Of a DNA stretch of 64,000 nucleotides, positions 6,851 through 36,005 are shown one piece after another. Location: assembly GCA_034226945.1 (NCBI GenBank), contig CP120457.1, positions 620,001 to 684,000 on the forward strand. Reading direction: 5' to 3'. The position numbers and the translations under genes were made by a program. Below the pieces are notes generated by a model. It saw nothing but the letters and a program-made list of their open reading frames with translations. It was not told the origin of the DNA and ran no database searches. This DNA is from Picochlorum sp. SENEW3. Its lineage: Eukaryota. Each line of letters begins with the position of its first letter. Within the stretch, counting starts at the first letter, position 1.

Positions 6851-9690
6851 ATGGATGATGCTGGACATGATGGTAGCGAGGCTACCAGGAATTCGACAAG
6901 GCCTTTGGGGAGAGGGTCAAGAGATTTCTCGACACTGGTCCGTGGGAAGAGGAAGCGGATTTGGGATGTTACAGAGTCTATAGATTACACACCATTTAAC
7001 AATCGGGTGGCGCTGAGGCGATATGGGGGTGTGGGGGAGCAGTCGAGGAGTATTTATGGATTTTCCGGTAGGACGTTTTTTACCCTACTGGCGACATTGT
7101 TGACTGGGATTCTGATTGGGATAACTGGGAAGATGTTGGAGGTTGGAATTGATGTTGGGGTGGGCCTGCGGAATAGATTGGTGATGGGGTTGTTGTTGGG
7201 GCAGCAGGGGACGGTCAGCTGTGACCTGGCTCTGGTGGGGCTGAGCGTGGTGACGGTGGGGGTGAGTGCGAGTGCGGTGCAGTGGTTGGCGCCTGGGGCT
7301 GCTGGGTCTGGAGTGAGTCTTGTGATGGCGTTGTTGAATGGGAATGATATCGCTGGGTTGTTGACGCCAATGGTGTTTGTGGTCAAGTTGGTTGGGACGG
7401 CATTGTCTCGGATGGCGTGCTTGGCATTGGGGCCAGAGGCTCCTTTGGTGCATTTGGGGGCGTGTGTGGCGTCAATTGTGTTTTATTCTGGTCAGCGTGC
7501 GTATCGTGCATCAACCTTTTCATGCGATCTTGTTGGGTTGCTTGAACCAATCATAATAACAAAAACAATGACCATGATGCAGGTATTGTGGATTTGAGGA
7601 GGTTGCGAGAGAGGAGGGAGATTTTGAGAGTGACGAGGGATCCAGTGTTTTCGAATGCGAGTCTGAGGCAGTTGATATCGGCTGGGGCGGCGGCGGGTAT
7701 GGCAGTGGCTTTTGGGGCGCCTGTAGGTGGTGTGCTGTTTGCGCTTGAGGAGGCATGTAGTGTGTGGTCGAAAAAGACTGCATGGAGGTGCTTGCTGGCG
7801 ACAGCGATTGCCGTGTTTTCAATGTCTCAAATATTTCCGGCGTTGGGTGGGGGATATATTCTGTCATTTTCTGGTATTTATCCTCTGTCTGACAGACAAT
7901 GGTTGTTTCAGTTGCCATTTGTGGTGTTTATGAGTGCTGTATCTGGGCTCTTGGGTGCGTTTTTTAATCTCATGCGCCGAAAGATGCAGCGGCATAGGGT
8001 ATCAAAGCGAAAGCATATGCTGAGAGTGTTGGAGGCATGTGGCGTCGCATTGGTGTCTTCTTCAGCATTTTTATTACTTCCCAGGCGGTTTGGTCAGTGT
8101 CTTGATCTGCCACCAACGTGGGAGGAGAGCCAAGTATTACAGTATGATTGCCCTGCGGGACAATATAATGACCTTGCGACGGCCCTCTTCGCAAGTGCTC
8201 CAGTGACGATTCGGAGTTTCTTAGGTCTAGGTAGCGAAAGTGAGCCTATAAATAGGATTTGTACGGCATCAATGCCCTGTTATTACACGCTGACTGCACT
8301 GATTTGTGTGAGTATGACGTATCTGGCATTGATGGTACTATCTTCTGGGTTGGCTGTGCCAGGAGGGTTGTTCATGCCTTCTGCAATGGTTGGTGGAGCC
8401 CTCGGAGCTTTCTTTGGCATTTTGATCAATCCTATTGTGCCCATGTCGTGGGACATTCAACCTGGAGTGTATGCGATTGTTGGAGCTGCAGCAATGCTTG
8501 CAGCAGTCTTCAGAAGCAGTGTGTCTCTGGTTGTCATTCTGGTGGAGGGCACGAGGGGTATCAATTTCCTTCCGGGGATATTAATTGCTGTGATTATATC
8601 AAATTTTATTGCTCATTGGATTCATCCAGATGGTATTTACGAGTCTGAATTGGAAGTGGATGGACGTGTCTTCTTCTTACGACAGGAACCTCCTGGGAGG
8701 TTGAGGAGCAAGACTGCAGAGTCATTGATGGCATCCCCTGTGGTGGGTTTGTACGAATTTGAATCCGTTGCTCGTGTGCTTCAGGTGCTATCTTCCACAA
8801 CGCACAATGGGTTTCCTGTATTTGCATCAGATCGCTCTGGCAGTAGTGCACGGCCACGTCTATCTGGGTTTATTTTGAGATCACAGTTGCTGATTTTATT
8901 GGGTGAACAGGTGTTTTGTGATGAAGAGGGTGATTATTTGAGTCATCCTTCTGGGATGGAGCAATCAGAATATGAGGAAAGGTTGGATGCATTGATGCAT
9001 CATGCTGTTCATGGAGGAAGTGAGATTGTTGATGCTCTGGTGGAGGATAGTGATGATGAGCAGGATGGGGATGGTGGGGAATTCTCTGTGCCAAAAATCA
9101 TGTCAAAAGCTCTTCAGATAATGGAGGATCTGTCAAGAGAACCTTCATTTGCTGATATACTATCTGCACAGGAGAATGGAAATGGATCGACATCGCGGGA
9201 GTTTTCCTCGTCGAGGCTGACAGAGATGATGGCAGATTCGTACATCAATTTGTCGCCCTTTATGGATTTGGGGATGATCACAGTGAGGCCAGATACCCCC
9301 GCTGCCCACGTGCATCAAATGTTTGTCACAATGTCTCTTCGACACTTGTGCGTGACAGATTCCTTGAATGGAATTCTTGGTATCGTGACACGAAAAGATT
9401 TGGATAGAGCCGCGGGGCATGGATGGTGGAGGAGTAATAAGATTGCCCCAGATCCTCCAAAGGACACTGCAGTGCTCCGATCCACAAGTTGGTTCCAATC
9501 CTCCCTTCAGGCTATTGCTGTGCCACCGCGCCGTATGCTTTCTGATTTACTCCAAAGTCTATCCCCGAGTCCTTCCATGGAGCGCACTGTATCATCGCTC
9601 GCAGAACAACATGTACATCCATCTTTGGAACATTTGTTGCAGGGAGAAGAGTCTCCCCAAGATAGTCTAGAGGATAACGTGTCACAGTGA
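6851..9690 (+). CDS. CLC: CLC-family chloride channel/antiporter with CBS domains
   Basis: Exons 6851-7496 and 7583-9690; GSGVS, GPEAP, AFGAPVGGVLFALEE, GLFMP, GIY; CBS motifs THNGFPV and GIVTRKDL. Confidence 0.93.
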
Positions 9691-18533: not shown

Positions 18534-20267
18534 TTAATCGACGAGTTGGACAGAGTCCAGGACTGCGTATCCAGCAGCTACGCCTCCTTCGGACGAGGTT
18601 GATGCCTTTGTTCGAACCAGCTGGCCAGCCCTGTGATTCACCAGAACGTTGGAGCCTTTCCTGAGAAGCACGCCATAAATACCGAGTTCTGAAAGGGACT
18701 CTATATCTTCAGCTACACCTCGACGGATCATTGTCACTGTATGTGGAGGAGGGATGATGCGTTGCATCAGAATGAGAGCTCCCAACCCTTGTTTCTGCTG
18801 CAGTCGGTCAACCATATCCTGTCCATAAAGGTTATTCCCTCCTCCCTCTCTCTGAGGTTTCAAGACGTACAGATCTGGGTTTTTGATCGCATCTTGGACA
18901 GCAGTGGATGCCTCTGTATCGTTCTCAAGGTCATCCAATCCCCACAGGCCTGCGAAACATGTCCGCATGCGAGCAGCATCCAAGTCGGATCTGCTGAATT
19001 TCTCAACAACCCCAGGGCGGGCGAGATCTTGTTGTACCTTTTTCGAACCTGCCAATTGCATCGCAATGGTTGGACATTTGGCTGCATTAGACATTTCGAT
19101 GATGGTTCGTGCATCCCATTCTTTACGAGAAGGATAATCTGTCGGCGTGTATCCAGCCCGAAAGTAGGCAAGCGACACAGTTGTTCCATCAATCATGAGG
19201 GATCCATCCTCCTGGAGGACTGCACGCTCGGCAATATCAAGGAGCGTTCTTCGAATGGTTCGAATTCTATACGTTTTCCAGAGCTGTAATTGTAGCCATT
19301 GTTGGTCGAATGAGTTCTGTTCGTCTGGTTGTACCACCATCATCATGGTTTTATCCTGGTGGCCATGCTCCTGAACAGCGGATGCCAGGCCTTGCACAAT
19401 CGAGTCCATAGAGGTATTTTGTGGCAGTTTCTTGTCCAGCTCGCTCTCCGGTATGCCAGATTTATCTAGTATATACCTATGTAATTGACTGACCAGCGTA
19501 GATAAACAGCCAAAGGAAGATGCAATTGTGTTGAGTTCCACTTGAAGCATTGTGGATGTTGGATCATGCAGCATATAGTCTGACCTGGTGATCACAAGGG
19601 ATATTTCCTCTTGCGGTTGTTTCTGGCTCTTCTGCTGCCTTGTGTCTTTGTATATTCTCATCAGCTCTCCCTATAAAAAGATACGTATACAGATAACTCA
19701 TCGAGGAGGAGCATTGACTATAATTTAACAAAAATCTCCGTACCGTGAATGCAGCATCCTCCTGTGCAGCATTCTCTAATACTTCAGTCAAATAGCCTGC
19801 ATCTTGGCTCACCATATCAATCATAGAGTTGAAAGGCTCGGCGGCATCCAACGCTCTCTCAAACGCCTGGCGAGGGAAAGGCACAGGCGTCAATGCAAAA
19901 GGAGCATGCACCAAAAGGCAGTCTGTTCCTGCTCCATACACCTATATACAGATATATGATCAGGCGCATCCTGTACATCTGCGATGGCATTCAAACATTG
20001 TCGTACCAATCCATGCTGCGCACACCATGCGATAGCATCCTGTATAAGCTCCTCCTTGCTGGAAGAAGAAGAGTGCATCCCAATATCCATGGAGGCAGCC
20101 TGAACAACTCTTCTGTTGGCTCTTGCTGTTCTCACTGATGAACCTAGAAGATGATGAGCTCTACAACCAGCCAATGGTTTACAAAATACTGATGCGACTC
20201 TATTTGCCCGAGAGCCTTTCTGCGTGGCGAGTCCTGCTGCCTCTCTAGAGCAACAGAGCACACTCAT
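18534..20267 (-). CDS. GSH2: Glutathione synthetase (eukaryotic type)
   Basis: Exons 20267-20007, 19941-19744, 19670-18534; RSDYM, QVELNTIASSF, VLKPQREGGGNN, SELGIYG, EGGVAAG. Confidence 0.95.
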
Positions 20268-20606: not shown

Positions 20607-22220
20607 ATGACTGGGGAGTCACAGGTACAAGCAGACGACTCGTTCACTCCAGTGACGATACCTGATCTCGGAGAGGCTGGATCTGTGTGGCGATGTGAAA
20701 AATTAAAAGATTTTGAGCGCCAAATGCGGATGCTTGGGTTGGAGAATGAAACAGAGTTTAAAGCATTGCAAAGGAAGATTGAGGAATACACTGTGGAATT
20801 GGAGGACTTGTGGGAGAAGCAACGGAACTGTGAGGCAAAGTGGTGGCAGGATGGGGAATATGATGCTCACAGAGCGGATGGATATAACGATGCAGGGATG
20901 GAGTGGTATGCTGCGAAGAATTGGCCAGAGGCGTTTGCGTCATTTTCAGAGGCTATTCGTTTGCATCCTCGATCAGCAGTGTACCATTCGAATAGGTCCA
21001 TGGCAGCGCTGAAGATGAAGCAGTATGATGTGGCTCTTGAGGATGCAATACATTCGATTGAGATGGATGATATGTACTGCAAGGGGTATATACGAGCTGG
21101 AAAGGCATGTTTGGGTCTGGGTGATCCAGAGCGTGCAGAGGGCTACTTTCAACGTGCACTGGATATGGTACCTGGTAGCAAATCTGCTTTGGCAGGGCTG
21201 GATGATGCGCATCGAATGAAAGAAAAGTTTTCAGAAGAGGATGCTTTCCACCAACGACTTGCTGATGAGGGTGGTCGTCCTGCGTTATCTCGAGATGATG
21301 TGGATGTTGAGTCAGTCTCGTTGACTCTTGTGAGTGTTGAGGAGATTTTGAAATCCAATCCTAGATTGGAATCCGCGATGTATCATAAAGCTGAGTGTTT
21401 AGTTCTTATTGGTAGGTATAAAGAGGCGTTATTATTTATCGATACACTTCGATCTGGGGTTGAGAGATCGTACATATTGGCGGAGGGGCTGTGGCGAAGT
21501 GGGCGTGTGGAAGATGCTTTGGAGGTTCTCCAAGAATTCGTCGTCAGGAATGAAAAGTGTTTGGACTTGAAGACGTACATTGCGCGTCTTCAAAGAGATA
21601 TTGATATAATTCAAAGATATATGGATGAAGAGGGCGAGTATGGTCAAGCTGTTTTGCGTTGCTCAGAATTGTTGGAATCTTTGTCCATTTCAGCCTGCAG
21701 TGGGTTGTACCGTAGGCTGCTACGGATGCGTGCTGATGCTCACTGCTGTAGAGGATCGTGGCTCGACGCAAAGACGGATTTGAATCTAGCCCTTAGTATA
21801 TATGAGGAGGATGTGGATGCTCTGCGATCCAAGGCGGATGTGCTGAAACAGATGGGAGCATATACAGAGTATTTTCTCAGCCTCCAGCGACTCAAGACTG
21901 TGTCGCCCAATGTACCTGGTCTCTCTGCATTGATCATGGATGCTGCACGATTATCGTTGAAGCACAAGGATGGTGAGTCGATGAATTATGCTGATACACA
22001 GACCAAGACGGCATCTGGTCCTGCCGCTGCGTTTGATGTGCTTGGTGTGTCACATGGTGTGCCCTTGTCAGATGTGAGAAAGGCATATTTGAAACTTGCA
22101 GCCACGTGGCATCCTGACAAGTGGTCTTCGGGAACTGACGATGAGCTCAAAAATGCAGAGGAGACATTTAAAGTTATTCAAAAGGCATATAATGATATTT
22201 GTGATTCAATGTTTCTGTAA
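20607..22220 (+). CDS. TPR-repeat protein with C-terminal J domain (DNAJC7-like)
   Basis: TPR motifs (AVYHSNRSMA); J domain RKAYLKLAATWHPDK. Confidence 0.88.
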   Translation: MTGESQVQADDSFTPVTIPDLGEAGSVWRCEKLKDFERQMRMLGLENETEFKALQRKIEEYTVELEDLWEKQRNCEAKWWQDGEYDAHRADGYNDAGMEWYAAKNWPEAFASFSEAIRLHPRSAVYHSNRSMAALKMKQYDVALEDAIHSIEMDDMYCKGYIRAGKACLGLGDPERAEGYFQRALDMVPGSKSALAGLDDAHRMKEKFSEEDAFHQRLADEGGRPALSRDDVDVESVSLTLVSVEEILKSNPRLESAMYHKAECLVLIGRYKEALLFIDTLRSGVERSYILAEGLWRSGRVEDALEVLQEFVVRNEKCLDLKTYIARLQRDIDIIQRYMDEEGEYGQAVLRCSELLESLSISACSGLYRRLLRMRADAHCCRGSWLDAKTDLNLALSIYEEDVDALRSKADVLKQMGAYTEYFLSLQRLKTVSPNVPGLSALIMDAARLSLKHKDGESMNYADTQTKTASGPAAAFDVLGVSHGVPLSDVRKAYLKLAATWHPDKWSSGTDDELKNAEETFKVIQKAYNDICDSMFL

Positions 22221-25200
22221 AAAAGCAAAATGTCCATCCTCGTACCCTACAGCAATGGTGGTTTGTGGAGACTGTCCACTGGTTGCATTGACTGATATGG
22301 ATGTCAGCGGAGCGTCCAAAGCACTTGTCTTGGGACATGGGACATCAGAGAGACCCAGATTGACACTACACACATGCAGTTGCCCGCCCTCATCACCAAG
22401 ATACACAGTGTCCTTCCAGCTCCTGCAGCATAGAAGAGGCGATGCAAAGTCGCGAGACATGACAACTTGATCAGACCGCCGAGAGTCTAGCATTCTAAGA
22501 ACTCCATCTGCACATGCAACGCCAAACAATGTACCATCTTGACAGGAACACACTCCGCCGATAAAGTCGCTACAAAGTTGGGACTCCATGGTCAGTTGAT
22601 TTGATCGACAATCGAATGCAAATACAGTTCCGTCCTCAGTACCAGCGACTATAGAGTCATTGAATAGGACTTCCATACTCCAAATAGCTCCAGCAGGACT
22701 TGCTATGGTGTTCAGGGGAATGGTACCGTCATCACGTTGTCCCCATGGTGCAGTCTCCAGATCCCACACCTTGATTGTCTCATCCCAGGAAGCGCTATAT
22801 ACTAGTGATGATTCATCCGAGGTACAAAGGCATGATACAATGTCACGGTGTGCTCCAAAAGAGGATGTTGAACCAGTGTTTGTGTCATATTTGTAGATTG
22901 CCCCATCGAAACCACTAGCCAGAATGTTTTGTGATGACCATGCAGTACATGTTATTGAACCATGCGAAAAGGCACATCTCCTCCGATGCTCCTTCGTTAG
23001 TAAGTCAAAAACGATTATATGGCCGTCTTGAAAGGAAAGGGATACATCGCTAGGATTCAACGGATTGATTTCAACAGATGTCAAGCCTCCAGAAAACACA
23101 CTGGTCTCCCAGGATGCACCCTCCTCGCTGACCAAATGTGGGCCATCATCATCTTGCCGTGGCGAAGATGCATCATTCTTTCTCGATCCATTCTTCCTTG
23201 GAGAAAGTGCTTGCAAGCTCGATGAGACCTTTGCTGCGAGGGCTTCGTTCCCATACTTTAATAGGTTTGATCCAGCCCGCTTTGAGCTGCTAACAACTGT
23301 TTGCAAACGTTGCTGAAATGAACTCTGAGAATCGGTCGTTGAGCCACTTGCCGAACGTTCCTTTTTCGAATCCATAGTCTCTAAAAGGGTACTATACTCT
23401 TCTTTCGTAACTTCCAAAGCACGCAACAATGCTATATCTGAATCATTGCTTGTGGCATCATCCCCATCTGGAGGGCTATCCAGAAGAGATTGAACAACGT
23501 GCAAAACTTTAGCTATTATTTCAGATCCATCCATGGCATTACGAGATGTTTGGTGTGCCTCAAACGAACTCCGACAGACACGCCTCTGAGGATGATTCCT
23601 ATAAAAAATCTGACGAGGACACTGACCAAATTCTGCAACTGCAACTTCCATGCTTTTCTTTTCAACAGGATCCTCAATATCATCGATATTCACGAGACCT
23701 GTAATTGATTGAAACAGAATGATTTTTATATATAGTGATGCGTATAATCATAGCAGAAACACACGAAAGGATACGCAACATCATTACAAGATGAACCAAA
23801 CAAACATGATACACATACCTTCATATGTCAACTGTCGAAAGACATTATTATTCCTCAACGCATCTTCTCCACGCTGACACACACCAAACACAAGATCAAT
23901 CCAATGATGCAAATTTGCAGACACATATGGAGACTCGAGTGCCTCCCACTGCTTCTCCAAAAAATACCGTGCATCATTGTGAGCCCACGGAGGCAACTCA
24001 ACATCCCCAACAGGCTTTCCATTCTGTCTACAACCGAGAGCAAGACCTCTTGAATTCTTTAAAAAGTCTTCTGCACCGGGACAGAAAAATTCTGGAATCA
24101 GCTCCTTCACATCTGTTGGACTGTGACACACACTCTCCCATGCTTCCCGTATCCCAGTGAATGAGCGATCTGGAGCATCAAATTTACCATTCTGAAGACG
24201 CAACATATGCTCAGGCATTGATCTCACCAACCAAAACAGCGTATATCCTGGGCATGAGTAGTGCGTTCCGTACAAGAAGGGTTCCTCGCCACCATGCATC
24301 TGCATCTCTACCATATCAGCATACCTCTGTTGAAACACCTTTAGCCGCTCTTCATTTATAGCGCCTATCGGCTTTGATAAATCTCTAAATATATCTTGGC
24401 AGTTAAGGTCAATTTCATCGCTCTTGTAATCCTTGATAATCCACGGAAACACAGGATACTGAGTCAAATCATGAAACGATCTCCCTGCCGCAAGATTACA
24501 ATACATCAGGTACTCGAAATTAGACAGCAATCCCCTCTGCCATGCCATCGTCGCTACCTGACAGTACCTTCCTTCAGCCTCCAACAACCCACCCGCAATA
24601 CTCCCATCCTCTCCAACATGATCCAACACAGCCCCGAGTGCCTCTTCTCTCTCCTCCTTTGACCGAAACACAAAAAACGCATTCGAACACCCCCAGTGCT
24701 TGACCGTCGTCCGCCTCTTTGCAGGCATCTTGAGGAACAATTCAATCCCCACGTCTCTCAACGAACTCCTCCGCCGTGCAGCTGCATACACAGCAGACAA
24801 CCGATGAGATCTCACATGCTCTCCCCCAGAAATATTATGCAGCGGCTGAAAGTAAAACCGAACATCCGTCACCACAAACTTCCCACGCTCTTTCGTCAAA
24901 CGAGACACCAACATGGCAGGCTTTTCAAACACAATCCGCTCGCACGTTGGATCTTCCAGACTCCCAAGATCAAAACGCTGCTCTGCTTCCAACTGACTCA
25001 GAAACACATCATGCATCTCCTTCATCTCATTCCGACCCAACCGACTACTCATCAACATCTGCTGAGCATACGGTATTATATCAGCCACTTTGGCATAGCT
25101 CAAACGAAAGCGCCACGTCACCTGACGCCCTCTACAAAAAGTATATGGCGCATCCCTCCCCTGTGGTTTCATGGTTGTATACCTATGCGCCACCACACGA

Positions 25201-25454
25201 ATCCCATTCTCTGACGCATTCCCCTCCAACTCATCCATAGATACATATGGAATCCGCGTCACTGGTATCCGAACATCATCTGGCTCAAAAAACACAGATT
25301 TGGTACACACCCTCAACTGCCCAGCCACAGACCCACCACGCAACTGCCCAGACGTGCCATCCTCCTCACACATGCATACGCATTCTGTAATATAAAACTC
25401 ATCATCCTCTAATAATAGTAAAGAAAACCGGCATCCCCCACCCGAGGGAACCAT
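22206..25454 (-). CDS. BEACH-WD40 protein, FAN/NSMAF-like
   Basis: Exons 25454-23819 and 23698-22206; RFSLLLL N-terminus, SNFEYL, QYPVFPW, YGTHYS, DVKELIPEFF, FGQCP, WD40 tail. Confidence 0.9.
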
Positions 25455-28487: not shown

Positions 28488-29264
28488 TTATTTAGCTACA
28501 AAAGGCGCATGTGCCTTTTCTATATATATATATATATATATATGTCTGTTAAGAAGAAGCAGAAGATGGTCCCAAGACAACATCATGGATGTGGTCTTGG
28601 AGGATTCCTGCATTGAAGATTGGTTAGTTAGATGTGTCAACAGATGCTGTGGGTGTTCACAATAGAAGAGGAATGCATGGCTCGTACGTGTTAGACGTTC
28701 ATCTGCAGCCTGACGATGTTTCATTTCATCCAAACATAGTTCTATGCATTGCCTGAGGGATGCTATTTCCATTCTAATACTCTTCTGCATCATTCACATG
28801 TATTACACCGTGGTTGTTGATTGATTGATTGGTTGAGACTCCACTCATCACACACATACCTCTGAGCTTGCTCTGTCCAGGAGCTTTTCTGCTTTCCCGA
28901 TTCTCTTTCGGCACTGATGGAAAAGATGCTGCATGGCATGGTGTCTTCCTTCTGTTGTTGTTGTTGTCTGGTGGTGGGTCGCTCTTTTTGCTGGATCTTG
29001 TGTACGACGATGCATGTGGTCATCATCATAGGTATCCATGGCATCACATGTAGACTGGAAAACTGGGTTTGTTCGGACATACAGTCCCTCTGAGGCCATA
29101 TATGGCTCTGTACATACTTTTGTATGGCTACTTTCATATTCTGGAGCTTCATATGCTGTACTTGATGGATAGAGAAGGGACTGAAGGTGTTTCAACTGTT
29201 GCTTGTCCTGGTGAATGCGGTTCTGAAGCATGTGTATTGTGTCTTCCATGGTATGCTGTGTCAT
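28488..29264 (-). CDS. Hypothetical two-exon protein
   Basis: Exons 29264-28860 and 28784-28488 join in phase via GTATGT..TGCAG; no recognisable domain, 3' end uncertain. Confidence 0.45.
28521..28542. repeat. (TA)11 microsatellite
   Basis: Direct reading. Confidence 0.9.
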
Positions 29265-30193
29265 TTTTTCGCCTCTGTCGCTCCTATCTATCTATCTCTT
29301 TGGATTGTATCATATATAGTATTCTACTTTAGATGTGTGTGTTGTGAGAACAACAACTCACAGTGTGTACACAGATGGATGATGAGGTCAACATGAGGCA
29401 CACATGGATATATATATTTATACACCTGTGTGAATGCATGCTTGTGTGGATCCAGAGGGCTCTTGTACGTCATCGTTAATATTACTAGTACGGTTAAAAT
29501 ATAAATACAATGCATTGAAATAATGATCAATCATGTTTCCTTCTTCTTTCATTGCTGCTGATGTCCACCAAGACTCAAAATGTAGTAGTAGTGCTGGTGA
29601 TGCATTCTGACTCACTGCGAGCTCAGTTTTTAGCTCTCCGAGCTCATAGTCGCTTGAGGCATGTTGTATCGCTTTTAAATCAGGATGCGCATATTCTTAT
29701 TCGCTCGCTTGGACACTGCCATCAGGTATTGGCTGGTGAATAAACTTTGGGAGGAGCACTGGCTCTTCCTCCAACAGTTTTCTTGCATTCTTGACAATCT
29801 TTCTGATTCTTTCGATCGCCAGTCTATGATGAGATCGACACGCTGTTTCTGTCAAAAATTTCGTTCCATCGCACTTGTTTTTTTATATTGATCCCCTTCT
29901 TCCGCAACTCTCCTCCACAGTTGCAGAGACCCAACCTCGACTTCAACCGTTTTCTCTTGGCTATCGTCATAGGAGCTACAAAAGCGACGATTGATCTCAA
30001 AAATTGAATTATAACCTATCAACGGTAATAAAGTTTATATTTTTGGTCGAGATTGGGACGTCTACTGCATTATTTCTCGAATCTCGACGATGGTTGTTAT
30101 AACACTAATTAGTTGAGCGCCACGTCATCATTCAAGTGTCTATTTCGTTCGTTGGAACTGTCTATTTGTCTCTCCTTGTTACATACCAATGTA

Positions 30194-33100
30194 TTACTTT
30201 TTATCGAATGATTTCAAGAGATGTTTGATGACTGACTTTCCTCTGAAAAGATTGAGTCTTCGTATGCGTTCGTTTGATAAGTGGCAGTTGTCTGAACTCT
30301 GGCCCATTGGGAGGAGCAAGGCAGGAGCGTGGAGAAGTTTCTCCAAGGCCGATGCCACAGGCATGGTGCCTCCTTCTCTAACAAGGAGTGGTGTCTCTTT
30401 CCACACGTCTTGAATAGCGCTCTCTGCGAGTTTAACAAGCTTGCAGTTTGGATCTGCTTCCCACCAGTCTCCGACTGAGTGGACAGTGATTTTGATCGAA
30501 TTGCCGGATCGAAGCTTTGCGAATTCATGCTTGAGATGATCTGTAAGTCTTTTGATGATGGATTCAGAATCCTGGTTTGGTACAAATCGGACCGACACTT
30601 TGCCCACAGCGGCTCTGGGGATGACTGAGAATCGTGTCGGGCCAAATCGATAGTGTGCTGTGTCTTCGTCTTCTGCTGTTCCTACTCTCACGTCGACAAC
30701 ACTGAGGGTCGGCTGGCACCAACGCGCCCATAGCAATTCTTCTTCTGTTCGACCTACGGTAAGTTCCTTGACACCGAGGTATGCACGGTATCCTTCGAGG
30801 GAGAATTCGTTCGAGTCCTCCAGTCGCTGCATGGCAATGTCAAGACAGCTCTCTTTGACATCTTCATAAAATCCTGGAACACAAACATTGCTTCTCGAGT
30901 CAACAAGCGATGCTAGTAGTTTTGTAAGATCTGCTAAAGGCTCTGAAAATACGCCTCCTTCGTTTCCAGAATGCAAGTCTTTTGCAGGACCCCGAATCTC
31001 CACGCTCATGTTCATCATGCCCCTCATGCCATAGGTGATGCATGGATGTGCTTCGCCAACCCACAAGGTGTTTGAGATGAAAATCGCTTCAGTTCCCTCA
31101 AACCAACGAATGTTATCTTGCACGGCTTCTTTGAATCCTATACTTCCGTTTTCTTCCTCACCTTCAAACAAAAATGCAACATTCACTGGCATTTTCCCCA
31201 TGCCATCTTCACTGTATCGAAGTTCTTCCAACATTTCTCGCACAGCAAATATAAAAGCTAAAATCGGTCCCTTGTTGTCGCTCACACCTCGACCAATGTA
31301 GTACCCATCCTTGGCATGAAGCTCGAATGGATAATGGCTCCAATCTGGTTCCATGGCAGGCTGGACATCATAATGCCCATAAAAGGTGATGGTTTTCAAT
31401 GCAGGATCATTGCCTATACGTCCCATAACCAGAGGATTTTTTCCCTCCATAGTTGGTGCTAATTTCACCTCTGCTCCAATGCTTTCCAAAAGACGAAGAA
31501 GAAATTTCGCTCCCTGAAAGCAGTCCTGCTTTCTTCCTGGATCAGCACTCACAGTCTGAATTTTGATAAAGGAACGAAGAGATTTCTCAAACTCTCTCTC
31601 AATCCTTGCTGATATAGCAGCACTGGTTGTGTCAAGTTTGCTTGGGACTCTTCTGATAATATCAGGTGTCTTTGACCTAATGATTCCATTTTCTTCAATC
31701 TCTAATTCATCATCACCATCACACACACATGCATCATGCAGTGAAATCTCCCCATCGTCAGAGCACACAATTACATATGGCGGGGATATCACACATGCCA
31801 TACACGGTGGAGCATGATAATAAAGTGAATTAAAGCCTATAATCCTTGGTATAGCCTCAAACACCTTGAGGCATGACAAGGTCTGTAAATCCCAGAGACG
31901 CACAGTCCCATCAGCAGATGAACTTGCAAACATGCCCAATCCTTCGTGTGCCGATATGCTGAGCACCGATGATTCATGACCACGAAGAATATCACAACAA
32001 ACCCACGTTTCTAAATCCCAAACTCTCACCACACTGTCCCTCCCTCCTGACACCAGAAAACCTTTGATTCGAGTTAATGCAAGAACTGAGCCACGGTGAC
32101 CACGCAACACCTTTTGAAATGATAAATCCTCCGCACTCCATACTCGTATCGTTGAATCATGACTTCCACTACAAACGACATCATCACAAACAGACAAACA
32201 TGTAACAGAAGAACAATGCCCCTTGGTTGCAAACGTTGTACATATGGGGTCAACCTTGTTCTTCTCCAATGACAGAGAAAACTTGTCTAGGTCCTTATCT
32301 CGTCCAAACAATGGATGCCTCAACTTTTTCTTCTCTATTCTGTTATCCCGTGACGTATTCAAAAGCGACTCTGGCGAATACTTTTTAATCCTGCAGTCCA
32401 CACTGCCCACAAATGCTGCTCCAGACGCATCACACGCCAATGCTGTAATGGATGCTTTCGAATTCGTTTTCACGACAGATATACACTCAAATGTTTTCAA
32501 ATCCCATAAACGAATCGTCTCAGCACCAGCACTCATCAAATATTCCCCAGCAAAATCGATTCTTCGAATAGGGTCTCTGTGCCCCTGAAGAGTCTTGATG
32601 CATGTATAATCTGACAGCGCCCACACACGGATCAACCCATCCGCACCGCCACTAAATAAATATTCCTCATTACTCTTGACTGTCGTCACCGGACCTCGAT
32701 GTCCACTCAACACATGGCAAGGATCTTGCATCGATCGAGGCGTCACAGCATCATCCAACCTCAAATCATTCTCCCCTCCACCCCTAGGAGTCGTCCCACC
32801 AGATCCCGACTTCAAACTCCCACTCCTCAGAATGCCTTTCTTACACTTTCCTGAATGTGCTGCGTCGAGTCCTCCATCCACGAGTTTCTCATCCACAGTC
32901 TCCAAACACCTATACACCTCTTCATTATCAGGATGCTCCCCTTCGTTCGCAAGCCACGCCTTGAACACAGTCAGAATCCCTTTACTATCCTTGGATATCA
33001 CTAAAGCTGTATTTGGCTCCACAGCATTCCAATCAGACGTACAATCAGTCACAGGCTCTGATGCCACGAGACACACCCGTGTCTCAGTCCCAGCATACGA

Positions 33101-33964
33101 CAACCCATAACTACCCTCACCAATCACCGCGCCACCACGCTTCCCAGTGGCACTTCCAGACGGCTGAGACGACGAATGAATCGTCTTGGATGCTTGAGAC
33201 GCCAAAGAAGTCGCGTGACAGGCCTGAGATCTGTCATACGAATACCCCTCTGCGTAATACAGCGACGCAGGAATGGTATCTGGATCATCAGCATACCTCG
33301 TCGCCACCGTCGTCACCCCATCCGTCACAACAAAGTTCAATAAACTCGTTCCTTCAATCCCATTCTCTTTTTGCACCCGAGTGATTGTCGACACAGTCGC
33401 CTGTATCGCCCTCAACAGCACTTCAGGCGTCTGCCTCTTCTTGGTATCAGGAAGATGATGCAGAAACAGTCCAAAGCACACCGCACTATCACTATGAAAA
33501 CTTTGAACAGCATTATATGCTTCATCATTCATAATGCTAATTAGCTGCCGACGAATATCCAGAAACCCCGCCACAACACCATTATGCATGAAGAGATAAT
33601 TCTCATGAGCAAAAGGATGACAATTCTGCTCACTCACCGGCATCCCCGGGTACGCCGCACGCACATGAGCAAAAATAAGACCACTCTCTAACTTCATCGC
33701 AAGCCTGTTCAGATTATCATTGTTCCACGCTGGCGTCACTGATGTAAATGTACAAGGAGTGGCATCGTTCATGGAACAGGGCGAGTACCACCCTATACCA
33801 AAACCATCTCCATTCAAATTTCCATATCCCAAATGACATGGTAGGCTACTATCATTCCTCCGCTCCCGTGCCTCGTAGCTTTGCTTGATAATTGACCGAG
33901 AGGGCCACAGCACGACATCCGCAACCAAAATTTCAGGCCCAATATAGGCCATCAACCGACACAT
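30194..33964 (-). CDS. Fusion: class II glutamine amidotransferase (Dug3-like) + WD40 + M20 peptidase (Dug2-like)
   Basis: Single 1256-aa ORF; MCRL, NGDGFGIGWY, FAHVRAA, NCHPF, FMHNG; ~7 WD repeats; YGHYDVQP, GRGVSDNKGP, EGEEENGS, REGGT, HLSNER. Confidence 0.92.
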   Translation of the reverse strand: MCRLMAYIGPEILVADVVLWPSRSIIKQSYEARERRNDSSLPCHLGYGNLNGDGFGIGWYSPCSMNDATPCTFTSVTPAWNNDNLNRLAMKLESGLIFAHVRAAYPGMPVSEQNCHPFAHENYLFMHNGVVAGFLDIRRQLISIMNDEAYNAVQSFHSDSAVCFGLFLHHLPDTKKRQTPEVLLRAIQATVSTITRVQKENGIEGTSLLNFVVTDGVTTVATRYADDPDTIPASLYYAEGYSYDRSQACHATSLASQASKTIHSSSQPSGSATGKRGGAVIGEGSYGLSYAGTETRVCLVASEPVTDCTSDWNAVEPNTALVISKDSKGILTVFKAWLANEGEHPDNEEVYRCLETVDEKLVDGGLDAAHSGKCKKGILRSGSLKSGSGGTTPRGGGENDLRLDDAVTPRSMQDPCHVLSGHRGPVTTVKSNEEYLFSGGADGLIRVWALSDYTCIKTLQGHRDPIRRIDFAGEYLMSAGAETIRLWDLKTFECISVVKTNSKASITALACDASGAAFVGSVDCRIKKYSPESLLNTSRDNRIEKKKLRHPLFGRDKDLDKFSLSLEKNKVDPICTTFATKGHCSSVTCLSVCDDVVCSGSHDSTIRVWSAEDLSFQKVLRGHRGSVLALTRIKGFLVSGGRDSVVRVWDLETWVCCDILRGHESSVLSISAHEGLGMFASSSADGTVRLWDLQTLSCLKVFEAIPRIIGFNSLYYHAPPCMACVISPPYVIVCSDDGEISLHDACVCDGDDELEIEENGIIRSKTPDIIRRVPSKLDTTSAAISARIEREFEKSLRSFIKIQTVSADPGRKQDCFQGAKFLLRLLESIGAEVKLAPTMEGKNPLVMGRIGNDPALKTITFYGHYDVQPAMEPDWSHYPFELHAKDGYYIGRGVSDNKGPILAFIFAVREMLEELRYSEDGMGKMPVNVAFLFEGEEENGSIGFKEAVQDNIRWFEGTEAIFISNTLWVGEAHPCITYGMRGMMNMSVEIRGPAKDLHSGNEGGVFSEPLADLTKLLASLVDSRSNVCVPGFYEDVKESCLDIAMQRLEDSNEFSLEGYRAYLGVKELTVGRTEEELLWARWCQPTLSVVDVRVGTAEDEDTAHYRFGPTRFSVIPRAAVGKVSVRFVPNQDSESIIKRLTDHLKHEFAKLRSGNSIKITVHSVGDWWEADPNCKLVKLAESAIQDVWKETPLLVREGGTMPVASALEKLLHAPALLLPMGQSSDNCHLSNERIRRLNLFRGKSVIKHLLKSFDKK

Positions 33965-34754
33965 TGGTATCTAATATCAATATAATTCTAAATGATGGAC
34001 ATTCTTGGCACTATTCTTGAGCAATACCAAGAAGACAAGACCAAGAAGGGCATGCATTTACATCTTCCCATCAAAGATACTATTTGATGGGAGACGAACA
34101 CATCCTCTCCGCGGTCGTTGTGAGACGTGTCCAGGCAGGTCATCTGAGATTGACAGACTCCGTCAAACGAATAACCGATTACAGTATTATACCTAGACAA
34201 CGTGTCTAGTAATACTTTTCAAGTTCTCAGTCGTCGTGACTGATCATACGAGCTAAGGATCGCCCGCACCGAACATCCTCGGCGGGTTCGACTAGAAGGT
34301 GGGTACCACTATGATGGAGACTTTCTTTTGCTTCTATTCATCTTTATTGGCATAATGGTGGGGAGGATGGAATGTATGGGTGTATTCCTGGCATTCACGC
34401 GCGGGGTGGCAGAGGGACAGAGCACTGTCCCATCTCTGTCAACCTTTGTGAAGAATGATGGCCATCTATCTCTATGATTCATATGATAAACAAGAATGGG
34501 AGATTGCGCGTGCCTTTCTCACGCATGGGCGAGCTCGATCGCGCCATGCGTGGGAGGGTTGTGAATGCCAGAAATTCATCCCTGTCTTGCCATGCCTCGG
34601 TGGGAGGATTGCGGTATCTCTTTGCGACTTTATTAGTGCATTGGTTGGAATTCATGTGTGTATGTGTGGGTGTAGGGTGTGCCTGCGACTGGCATTCTAG
34701 AAGGATTTGACGCGGCAAAGACCTGGTGTGCCACCAGAGTGGAAATTGACGGCG

Positions 34755-36005
34755 ATGCTGGCGATTCGAGATTCTTTTTCATCCAATGATGGTGCTTACG
34801 AAGCGACGACCAGTTCTGTGCCGTCTGGGGGGGGTCGAGAGGAGAGGGCGTCCTCAGTGGTCAGGATGAGACACCCGGGTCTGTTGACACGGCCTTTGTC
34901 GATGAGTAAATCGAGCAGTTCTCCTGCGTTGAAGCATTTGTGTATGAATGCTGCGGATGGAGACTTGGAAGTGTATGTAGTGCTGAGGAATTTTCAGGAA
35001 TTTGGTGGGGGGATTTTTCACAGGCTTCCAGAGCCCTTGAGAAATGGCCTCAGAGATAGTGGCGTGTGCCATTATATGACGGTGTTTAAGCAAAAGGATG
35101 GCACCATGGTTCAGTTTGATTTCGGTCCTGCAGCCGGGGGGGATATCCACGTGGCTGGGCCAGGCCCTCTGAATAAGAGTTCAAAGGAGAGGAAAAAGGC
35201 TGTGGTGGGCCAAGTGAGGGAGAGGAAATTGCAGGCTCTGCCAGATGCGCACATGTTTGTTGGAACAACGAATATGAGTTTGTCAGAGATTAGAGCGTGG
35301 AATAATGTGCATGCAGCGTCAGAGTATGAGCTGCATCACTCCGATTGTAGGCATTATGTGAATGCATTGGTGAGGTATACAACTGGTATTGAGAGTGCAG
35401 CAATCTCTGCACTTCGGCATCAGGTAGCTAGGCATAAAAATTCTGGAAAAGTGTCAAGACACATGATTAGAGTAGGTCAGTATTTTACAGATGCAGCAAA
35501 TTGGGACAGGGTCAGAGCCATTGGCCATGCGACCAGCGCTGCCATCATGACGCTAGCAGGCCAGCAGACGCTCGCCCGGTTTGGTGCAGTTCCCATCTTC
35601 AGATCGGTGGGATCCAAAGTGATTCCAGCATCTGCGAGAGGAGCACTGGTGCCTGTAAAGAAGGCTCTGTTCCATCGCCCTGTGTATGCCATGAGTACAG
35701 CAGCTGTAGCATCCACCATTTCCACCTCACAAGAAGTGTCAGCCAGGCATGCAGCACCAGCAGGCATTCGACGAAACATGGTACAGACGATCCAAAGTGC
35801 CGTCAGAGTCGCCACAAATTTTGCAGATACGATGACGAAAACAGCATCCAACTTTGTCCAGGGCGCTGTGCGACGACCCACAAAAGTGGCACATCAAATC
35901 AGTGAGCAACCACGGCGGAAAGGACCCTTCTTCCTGGGAGCCTCGAGTGATGGCAACTTTGGCCATCAAGTCCAGCACTTGGCCATGATTGCATCTCGAC
36001 GATGA
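34755..36005 (+). CDS. Hypothetical protein, possible permuted papain-like fold
   Basis: CHYMTVF, QFDFGP, YELHHSDCRHYVNAL; 5' end uncertain. Confidence 0.65.
   Translation: MLAIRDSFSSNDGAYEATTSSVPSGGGREERASSVVRMRHPGLLTRPLSMSKSSSSPALKHLCMNAADGDLEVYVVLRNFQEFGGGIFHRLPEPLRNGLRDSGVCHYMTVFKQKDGTMVQFDFGPAAGGDIHVAGPGPLNKSSKERKKAVVGQVRERKLQALPDAHMFVGTTNMSLSEIRAWNNVHAASEYELHHSDCRHYVNALVRYTTGIESAAISALRHQVARHKNSGKVSRHMIRVGQYFTDAANWDRVRAIGHATSAAIMTLAGQQTLARFGAVPIFRSVGSKVIPASARGALVPVKKALFHRPVYAMSTAAVASTISTSQEVSARHAAPAGIRRNMVQTIQSAVRVATNFADTMTKTASNFVQGAVRRPTKVAHQISEQPRRKGPFFLGASSDGNFGHQVQHLAMIASRR

Follow-up and report, generated by a model that had tools for sequence, protein, structure and literature searches.

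A single-chain protein combining Dug3-like and Dug2-like modules in the green alga Picochlorum, a candidate glutathione-cleaving enzyme found widely outside fungi

The best described relative of the gene considered here is the (Dug2p-Dug3p)2 complex of Saccharomyces cerevisiae, in which a class-II glutamine amidotransferase (Dug3) works together with a second polypeptide that carries WD40 repeats and an M20 domain (Dug2). Dug3 reportedly binds the WD40 part of Dug2, the M20 domain is said to dimerise, and Dug2 is said to be without peptidase activity. We focus here on an open reading frame (ORF) at 30194-33964, on the minus strand, of a window of 64,000 nucleotides from Picochlorum sp. SENEW3 (contig CP120457.1, positions 620,001 to 684,000; window coordinates are used throughout), which joins all of these modules in one chain. 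The two-protein DUG system of yeast is known; what appears to be new is the single-chain form and its spread over non-fungal eukaryotes. With a probability of roughly 70%, we take the ORF to encode a cytosolic, single-chain counterpart of (Dug2-Dug3)2, a putative gamma-glutamyl amidohydrolase that would cleave glutathione to glutamate and Cys-Gly. That it cleaves glutathione at all, including by the gamma-glutamyl transpeptidase-independent route proposed in an earlier note on this DNA, is something we infer from its relatives.

The algal protein has the same three modules as the yeast complex, in the same order when Dug3 is placed ahead of Dug2, and it shares with that complex the Met-Cys start, the M20 dimerisation sub-domain and an Asp-to-Asn change in the M20 domain. 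It differs in that yeast uses two polypeptides, whereas the alga has one chain with a Gly/Ser-rich linker of about 70 residues. Compared with the dipeptidases Dug1, CNDP2 and CNDP1, the fused M20 domain keeps the H, D, D, EE and H residues as well as the lid-domain His and Arg positions; unlike them, it has Asn965 in place of a ligand Asp and forms the C-terminal third of a 1256-residue protein, behind a propeller. The mycobacterial enzyme EgtC (4zfj, 4zfk, 4zfl) is alike in fold and in the type of bond attacked, the gamma-glutamyl amide of a cysteine-derived adduct, but the sequence match is weak and partial and falls under the TIGR03442 cut-off, the fused protein has two extra domains, and the nearest bacterial relatives of its amidotransferase lie outside egt gene neighbourhoods (21 loci). 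Bacterial stand-alone class-II amidotransferases of the 3mdn type show the top raw similarity and have all catalytic residues in common with the fused domain, but they are single-domain proteins and fall on the other side of the key branch (93/87) of the tree described below. Among the solved chains searched, there was no structure of Dug2 or Dug3.

The gene runs from the first ATG to the stop (30194-30196) as one ORF of 1256 codons plus stop without interruption, as the earlier note had it; the strand, which that note left unstated, is the minus strand. With about 3 stops per 64 codons, the chance of 1256 open codons is about (61/64)^1256, or ~1e-26. The translation opens with MCRLMAY, and an in-frame TAG three codons 5' of the ATG fixes the Met-Cys start, so that none further upstream is possible. 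The closest match, a 'hypothetical protein' of the trebouxiophyte Picochlorum sp. BPE23, also has 1256 residues and is 99% identical over 100% of the length, in keeping with the green algal host that had been proposed. Two runs of one study, X1 and X2, come from a strain ~99% alike to the window (42 differences over 3766 bases), and each has one contig that spans the gene without a joint, over 30192-33957 in X1 and 30192-33980 in X2. Their depth is 59-68 on the fused gene, drops to 0 immediately downstream of it and reaches 500-1900 on the adjacent upstream gene, and it varies ~10- to 30-fold between neighbouring genes; because of this unevenness, and of a GT..AG joint in the adjacent gene, both runs look RNA-like. 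Although these contigs cannot reveal transcript ends, they span the whole ORF and back a single transcript for the fused gene, as support rather than proof, in line with the earlier claim of one gene rather than two transcripts. Run X5, probably DNA, and X11, a metatranscriptome with pieces 90-95% alike over 30214-33103, do not clearly strengthen the case. The X1 and X2 contigs leave their likeness to the window two bases after the stop codon and continue with at least 255 unlike letters, and 29202-30137 has zero X1/X2 depth with X5 coverage present; the 3' flank (29202-30192) seems to differ between strains.

Sequence profiles and models agree on the domain anatomy. The N-terminal domain is a class-II glutamine amidotransferase of the N-terminal nucleophile (Ntn) type, Dug3-like, at residues 1-343 (32936-33964). 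Pfam GATase_4 (PF13230) matches residues 50-222 (39.6 bits, cut-off 23), and an AlphaFold2 model of residues 1-348, built on a 30-row alignment, predicts an Ntn sandwich fold to about residue 343 (predicted local distance difference test score, pLDDT, 83.3; predicted template-modelling score, pTM, 0.83). The solved folds closest to this model are those of EgtC (4zfk, 4zfl and 4zfj, template-modelling score 0.81-0.85 by target length), followed by 3mdn and then by the glutaminase domains of GlmS/GFAT and PurF. Within the domain, a low-complexity insert at residues 249-279 (33128-33220) has pLDDT below 50 at 249-254 and 256-279 and aligns poorly among relatives. The linker to the propeller, residues 344-416 (32717-32935), is rich in Gly and Ser, has no Pfam match, shows low pLDDT at both model ends and varies in length among relatives. 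The WD40 propeller spans residues 417-744 (31733-32716). Pfam WD40 (PF00400) finds five stretches there (117.6 bits, cut-off 27), with propeller families covering residues 414-717, and the '~7 WD40 repeats' counted earlier can be read as five canonical and two degenerate repeats. A second AlphaFold2 model, of residues 405-1256 (32-row alignment; mean pLDDT 84.2, pTM 0.60), shows a propeller followed by an M20 fold, and its 27 strands of at least 3 residues between residues 417 and 744 (model residues 13-340) would fit seven four-stranded blades. Between blades 3 and 4 lies an insert predicted to be disordered, residues 538-568 (32261-32353; pLDDT below 50 at model residues 134-164). The M20 domain of Dug2 type occupies residues 781-1256 (30197-31624), with Pfam Peptidase_M20 (PF01546) at 861-1251 (83.1 bits, cut-off 24.6) and M20_dimer (PF07687) at 979-1149 (32.4 bits, cut-off 21), the latter marking the dimerisation, or lid, sub-domain (30518-31030). 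The three domain types named in the earlier note are thus all recovered, the Cys2 amidotransferase by its MCRL start, Pfam match and Ntn model, and the M20 domain by both Pfam families and by alignment with solved structures. That the amidotransferase and a Dug2-like WD40 part share one chain is probably the strongest genomic hint of their partnership. Two complex predictions pairing the amidotransferase (1-348) with the propeller (405-775), runs in which the supplied alignment was unused, gave a score of 0.00, which is evidence neither way.

The active site of the amidotransferase domain appears intact. The codon of Cys2, the predicted N-terminal nucleophile after removal of Met1, lies at 33959-33961. 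In an alignment of 71 rows (fused, fungal, other eukaryotic and bacterial), the Cys2 column holds Cys in 65, the 6 misses including late-starting, cut or falsely extended gene models. Conservation is near complete elsewhere: R102, N128 and G129 are kept in 70 of the 71 rows each, and D159, H100 and H127 in all 71. By analogy with class-II amidotransferases in general, we take Cys2 to be the nucleophile, Arg102 to bind the carboxylate, Asn128-Gly129 to form the oxyanion hole and Asp159 to bind the amino group.

These 71 rows also yielded a tree (299 columns; IQ-TREE with LG+C20+F+G4, run in a quick and then a careful version). Its bacterial rows are the query's own best stand-alone matches, and the fungal Dug3-sized proteins came from a second search tuned to 338-1077 residues, one of them labelled 'DUG3 [Fulvia fulva]'. 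In the careful tree, one branch, with ultrafast bootstrap (UFBoot) 93 and Shimodaira-Hasegawa-like approximate likelihood ratio (SH-aLRT) 87, parts 47 rows from 24. On the side of 47 are all 25 fused rows, 2 with amidotransferase and WD40, all 15 fungal rows, Balamuthia, two stand-alone eukaryotic proteins and two that fall among the fused ones. The other 24 are all 13 bacterial rows, 9 bacteria-like ones and one long-branched pair labelled as eukaryotic (Ochromonas and the EukProt protein P0280). The fungi group together at 100/98, the fused rows at 93/91 and the green lineage at 98/94; the last is the clustering that vertical descent would predict. Because the best-scoring bacterial rows stay outside the branch, there is no sign that the fused domain came separately from bacteria, and the amidotransferase groups with fungal Dug3-type proteins, apart from the EgtC-like bacterial best hits, as had been proposed.

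A tree of the M20 domain (47 rows, 460 columns, quick method, rooted on two Asp-bearing stand-alone M20 proteins) places all 45 fused or WD40+M20 rows in one clade (99*). Within it, 18 rows form a fungal clade (99*) that includes 'DUG2 [Hypsizygus]' and two unnamed WD40+M20 rows, and its sister clade of 27 rows (92) consists of the fused proteins, an oomycete protein and one further WD40+M20 protein. The identification of the WD40+M20 part as Dug2 is borne out by the common architecture, by these fungal Dug2 clade mates and by the shared Asp-to-Asn change. The two trees agree, as would be expected had the outer domains travelled together, and they support a descent of both domains shared with fungal Dug3 and Dug2.

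The metal site of the M20 domain is complete but for one ligand. The domain aligns end to end with CNDP1 (3dlj), CNDP2 (4ruh, 2zof) and yeast Dug1 (4g1p), with E values of 7.9e-73 to 7e-69, and Asn965 (codon 31070-31072) stands opposite Asp in all four solved sequences, that is, ISN for ISD, as the earlier note had read from the ISNT motif. It was also right that the other ligands are intact: H864, D866, D896, E938 and H1228 are in place, as is E937, the general base. Active Dug1 and CNDP2 are stand-alone enzymes of ~480 residues with a complete di-metal site that includes the ISD Asp; the fused protein has Asn965 at this site, in a domain that is part of 1256 residues. The earlier note was also right to call the Asn Dug2-like; its use as a marker of the Dug2 lineage is derived in this analysis and has no published definition. 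A first set of 96 M20 domains (fused and fungal WD40+M20) had Asn in 91, Ser in 4 and Leu in 1. An exhaustive HMMER scan over 1.84 billion cluster representatives added another 137, with Asn in 126, Asp in 3, Ser in 2, His in 1 and Leu in 1, and 4 unaligned at that position. Over both sets, 225 of 249 proteins aligned at all seven sites, and among these the residue is Asn in 212, Ser in 7, Asp in 3, Leu in 2 and His in 1. Of the three with Asp, two (454 and 458 residues) are ordinary, stand-alone M20 enzymes. The best 150 library representatives are mostly long proteins, nearly all of the aligned ones with a non-Asp residue (mostly Asn), and there is no Dug1 or CNDP2 sequence among these 150 besides the two stand-alone Asp-bearing proteins. 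Each metal ligand is kept in 219-225 of the 225 domains, and the general-base position (E937; 31154-31156) holds Glu in 189, Gly in 22, Gln in 8 and other residues in 6. Kept ligands next to a replaced general base suggest that a binding pocket may be under selection without peptidase chemistry. H998 and R1126, which align with the His of the CNDP2 lid domain and with its substrate-binding Arg, are invariant in 32 fused and fungal sequences.

The fused form is not peculiar to Picochlorum. A full-length search returned 184 proteins at E <=0.001 among 7999 scored candidates; the counts that follow cover the best 120 of the 184, with domain presence judged from BLASTP matches to each of the query's three segments (E 1e-5). 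The complete set of three domains is present in 71 of these proteins, another 39 lack the amidotransferase but have M20, whether or not WD40 is detected, 4 combine amidotransferase and WD40, and 4 fall outside these types; in Euglena and the diplonemid Lacrimia the outer two domains are detected and the middle part is too diverged for BLASTP at this threshold. In the green lineage, the three-domain protein occurs in trebouxiophytes, chlorophyceans, ulvophytes, Pedinophyceae, Chloropicon and Cymbomonas, and in the streptophyte algae Chara, Mesostigma, Spirogloea and Chlorokybus. Elsewhere it is found in the red alga Cyanidium (caldarium), the amoebozoans Planoprotostelium and Soliformovum, the apusomonad Thecamonas, the choanoflagellates Mylnosiga, Hartaetosiga and Salpingoeca kvevrii and the ichthyosporeans Creolimax and Amoebidium. 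Since several relatives (Mylnosiga, Hartaetosiga, Salpingoeca kvevrii, Soliformovum, Lacrimia and Euglena) are complete ORFs of de novo transcriptome assemblies, the fusion is no artefact of gene models. Named fungal matches, from Blastocladiomycota and Mucoromycota to Dikarya, are all without the amidotransferase domain, and some of these WD40+M20 proteins carry the source labels DUG2 or 'glutathione degradosome'. The matches listed in the full-length and amidotransferase searches include none named from a land plant or an animal, which does not prove absence. Balamuthia has a stand-alone amidotransferase and the oomycete Thraustotheca a WD40+M20 protein. Database names of the fused proteins are generic or wrong, for instance 'Glutamine amidotransferase type-2 domain-containing protein', 'Cys-Gly metallodipeptidase DUG1', 'WD repeat protein' and 'Cndp1'. 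Some relatives have other domain contents. Models of Klebsormidium nitens (P0243, 711 residues) and Cyanidiococcus yangmingshanensis (P0244, 810 residues) have amidotransferase and WD40 with no M20 domain listed and could be truncated models or cases of true M20 loss. The endonuclease/exonuclease/phosphatase family PF03372 is listed with WD40+M20 in Thraustotheca clavata (P0084, 1570 residues) and with the amidotransferase domain in a model of Chlamydomonas sp. UWO 241 (P0088, 714 residues), which could reflect further accretion or merged gene models.

This distribution bears on the description of the protein as a 'fungal-type' complex in a green alga. The fusion itself is present as described; however, it is not special to the alga but widespread in non-fungal eukaryotes, and the polarity implied by the term is backwards, since it is the fungi that look derived and split. 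On the species tree, the fused gene occurs in Amoebozoa, Apusomonadida, Holozoa, Archaeplastida and Euglenozoa, and the split form in Fungi. As the fused form flanks Fungi, the most parsimonious history is one in which the fused gene is old and was split on the fungal stem, and the fungal two-gene form likely arose in this way. Against this, fungi nest among the holozoan fused sequences in neither gene tree; a change of rate after fission is a possible cause. A wider proposal combines several steps: the single-chain form would be ancestral, predating the split of Amorphea, Archaeplastida and Discoba, it would have broken on the fungal stem and been lost in animals and land plants, and its conserved M20 pocket would bind the Cys-Gly end of glutathione and present the gamma-glutamyl bond to Cys2. 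On this view the pocket, whose Asp has become Asn and whose general base is dispensable, would be no relic, and would act as the acceptor domain does in other class-II amidotransferases. We advance this combination tentatively, giving it somewhat less than an even chance as a whole.

For the reaction itself, we envisage the following. Met1 would be removed, and Cys2, through its freed amino group and its thiol, would attack the gamma-glutamyl amide bond; Cys-Gly would depart and the thioester be hydrolysed to glutamate. The propeller would hold the amidotransferase domain, as the WD40 part of Dug2 reportedly holds Dug3 in yeast, and the M20 domain would pair two chains, giving a homodimer equivalent to (Dug2-Dug3)2. 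The Cys-Gly end of the substrate may be held in the near-intact M20 pocket, and released Cys-Gly would then be split by a separate dipeptidase. Other gamma-glutamyl peptides are probable further substrates of an enzyme of this type. A cleavable targeting peptide is incompatible with a nucleophile that has to be residue 2, so the enzyme should be cytosolic.

Several observations weigh against this assignment, or against evidence used for it. By raw similarity, the nearest stand-alone proteins to the amidotransferase domain are bacterial class-II amidotransferases of 280-320 residues (42-49% identity, E 1e-62 to 1e-51; Ignavibacteria/Kapaibacteria, Pyrinomonadaceae, Udaeobacter, Cytophagales and others), and fungal Dug3-type proteins score lower (36-42%, E 1e-47 to 1e-32). 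The best NCBIfam model is the EgtC model TIGR03442, and the closest solved fold is EgtC. The key branch of the amidotransferase tree is only moderately supported (93/87, not starred), its bacteria were all picked from the query side and none separately from the fungal Dug3 side, both trees were built without authentic S. cerevisiae Dug2, Dug3 and Dug1, CNDP2 or mycobacterial EgtC, their fungal rows being database-labelled homologues, and the M20 outgroup consists of just two stand-alone proteins. As for the transcript evidence, X1 and X2 carry the tool label 'RNA?', so that their RNA nature is a tool's guess together with our reading of depth and intron joint. The amidotransferase does look EgtC-like by raw similarity, NCBIfam and fold; so do the fungal Dug3 proteins. 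Taken at face value, the likeness would make the protein an EgtC-type enzyme of ergothioneine synthesis, or of a similar thiol-histidine pathway, fused by chance to a scaffold. The TIGR03442 score is 161.3 bits, however, below the curated cut-off of 218.65, which fungal Dug3-type proteins (130-165) and the bacterial relatives (196-212) also fail to reach; solved mycobacterial EgtC, compared through PDB searches and not placed in the tree, aligns to residues 1-137 only, with E 1.2e-11 against 6.4e-29 for 3mdn; no EgtB or EgtD family protein was found among 53 neighbour ORFs at 21 bacterial loci; and the partner domains are those of Dug2. An ergothioneine role is thus very improbable. Already near refutation is the idea that this is not one gene at all, but a pair of neighbouring genes, or an error of assembly or annotation, across which the frame stays open by chance. 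Cut public models, such as the 313-residue model of another Picochlorum (P0137), and separate amidotransferase and WD40+M20 models in Chlamydomonas sp. UWO 241 (P0088, P0074) could be taken that way, but 1256 stop-free codons, a full-length frame in 71 of the 120 listed relatives, de novo transcript ORFs included, and single X1 and X2 contigs that cross both linkers without a joint speak otherwise.

The alternatives that deserve more weight accept the enzyme type and differ on what it does. Its main substrates might be gamma-glutamyl dipeptides, glutathione conjugates, phytochelatins or a thiol-histidine intermediate: a passage of PMC7617739 has the yeast complex also acting on gamma-Glu-Met, and the closest fold, EgtC, cleaves a gamma-glutamyl-cysteine-type adduct and not glutathione, according to the titles of its PDB entries. 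The residues that hold the glutamyl group are invariant in fused, fungal and bacterial rows and hence do not discriminate, but orthology with Dug3 and Dug2, whose described role is the use of glutathione, argues for glutathione, and we consider a different main substrate unlikely. Slightly less likely again is a bifunctional enzyme, in which the M20 domain keeps its activity as a Cys-Gly dipeptidase and a single chain yields three amino acids with no need of a Dug1-type enzyme. E937 and four of five ligands are kept, Asn is still able to bind metal, H998 and R1126 do not vary, and a purely structural role leaves the near-complete conservation of the pocket unexplained; yet the Asp-to-Asn change is almost universal in Dug2-type domains, and the general base is replaced in 36 of 225 with ligands kept, which fits binding over catalysis. 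A single-chain, glutathione-cleaving counterpart of the yeast complex thus remains the reading we prefer.

The abstract of PMC9012958 calls the DUG pathway 'fungus-specific'; the fused form described here occurs in an alga and in many other non-fungal eukaryotes. In a passage of a Euglena paper, a single transcript contig is given as the orthologue of 'GSH degradosome proteins' (GSH, glutathione), with no comment there on the fusion. The full text that we searched, from which subscription journals are mostly missing, held no description of a fused Dug3-Dug2 protein outside fungi or of a DUG complex in algae, and an earlier mention elsewhere is possible. If our reading is right, the fused orthologue would represent a widespread, probably ancient cytosolic recycling of glutathione sulfur and nitrogen, including in abundant marine and industrial microalgae such as Picochlorum. 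The fusion would also lend independent support of the Rosetta-stone kind to the Dug2-Dug3 partnership, a single chain should be handier for structural work than the two-protein complex of yeast, and the question is raised of the role of an M20 pocket that is conserved in every ligand but one.

For the bacterial relatives of the amidotransferase domain, we looked at the neighbourhoods of the best 80 of at least 598 confirmed loci (600 pattern matches). By tblastn at E 1e-5, no relative of the query's WD40 or M20 part lies within 5 kb at any of these 80, and the three-domain eukaryotic arrangement is without bacterial precedent in the sampled loci. A TIGR03442 search of two bacterial and 14 control genomes gave nothing above the cut-off. 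At 5 of 21 loci (L011, L015, L018, L034 and L037, in Kapaibacteria and Pyrinomonadaceae), a gene for an S9-family peptidase, prolyl oligopeptidase/DPP-IV-like, adjoins the amidotransferase gene, and at several Kapaibacteria/Ignavibacteria loci a gene for complex-I subunit L does so. The neighbourhoods are heterogeneous, and the S9 peptidase is the one functional lead they offer.

Within the window, an ORF of 375 residues at 18534-19661 on the minus strand matches eukaryotic glutathione synthetase (PF03917, E 3.8e-87; PF03199, E 1.2e-34). It covers profile positions 93-363, so that an upstream exon is likely, and it lies ~10.5 kb from the putative glutathione-degradation gene, by linkage or by chance. 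The ORF adjacent to the fused gene, at 34755-36005 on the plus strand (416 residues), matches no Pfam family at E 1e-5 and has the highest X1/X2 depth (~500-1900). Just upstream of it, one X1 contig skips 34296-34674 with GT..AG ends, which is likely a 377-base intron of this neighbouring gene. Two further pairs of ORFs resemble the exons of single genes: 6851-7597 and 7699-9690, on the plus strand, of a CLC chloride channel gene with a CBS domain, and 23784-25454 and 22206-23651, on the minus strand, of a gene with PH-BEACH followed by WD40 repeats. Because such pairs look like exons, the genome appears to have some introns; the 3.8-kb fused gene has none.

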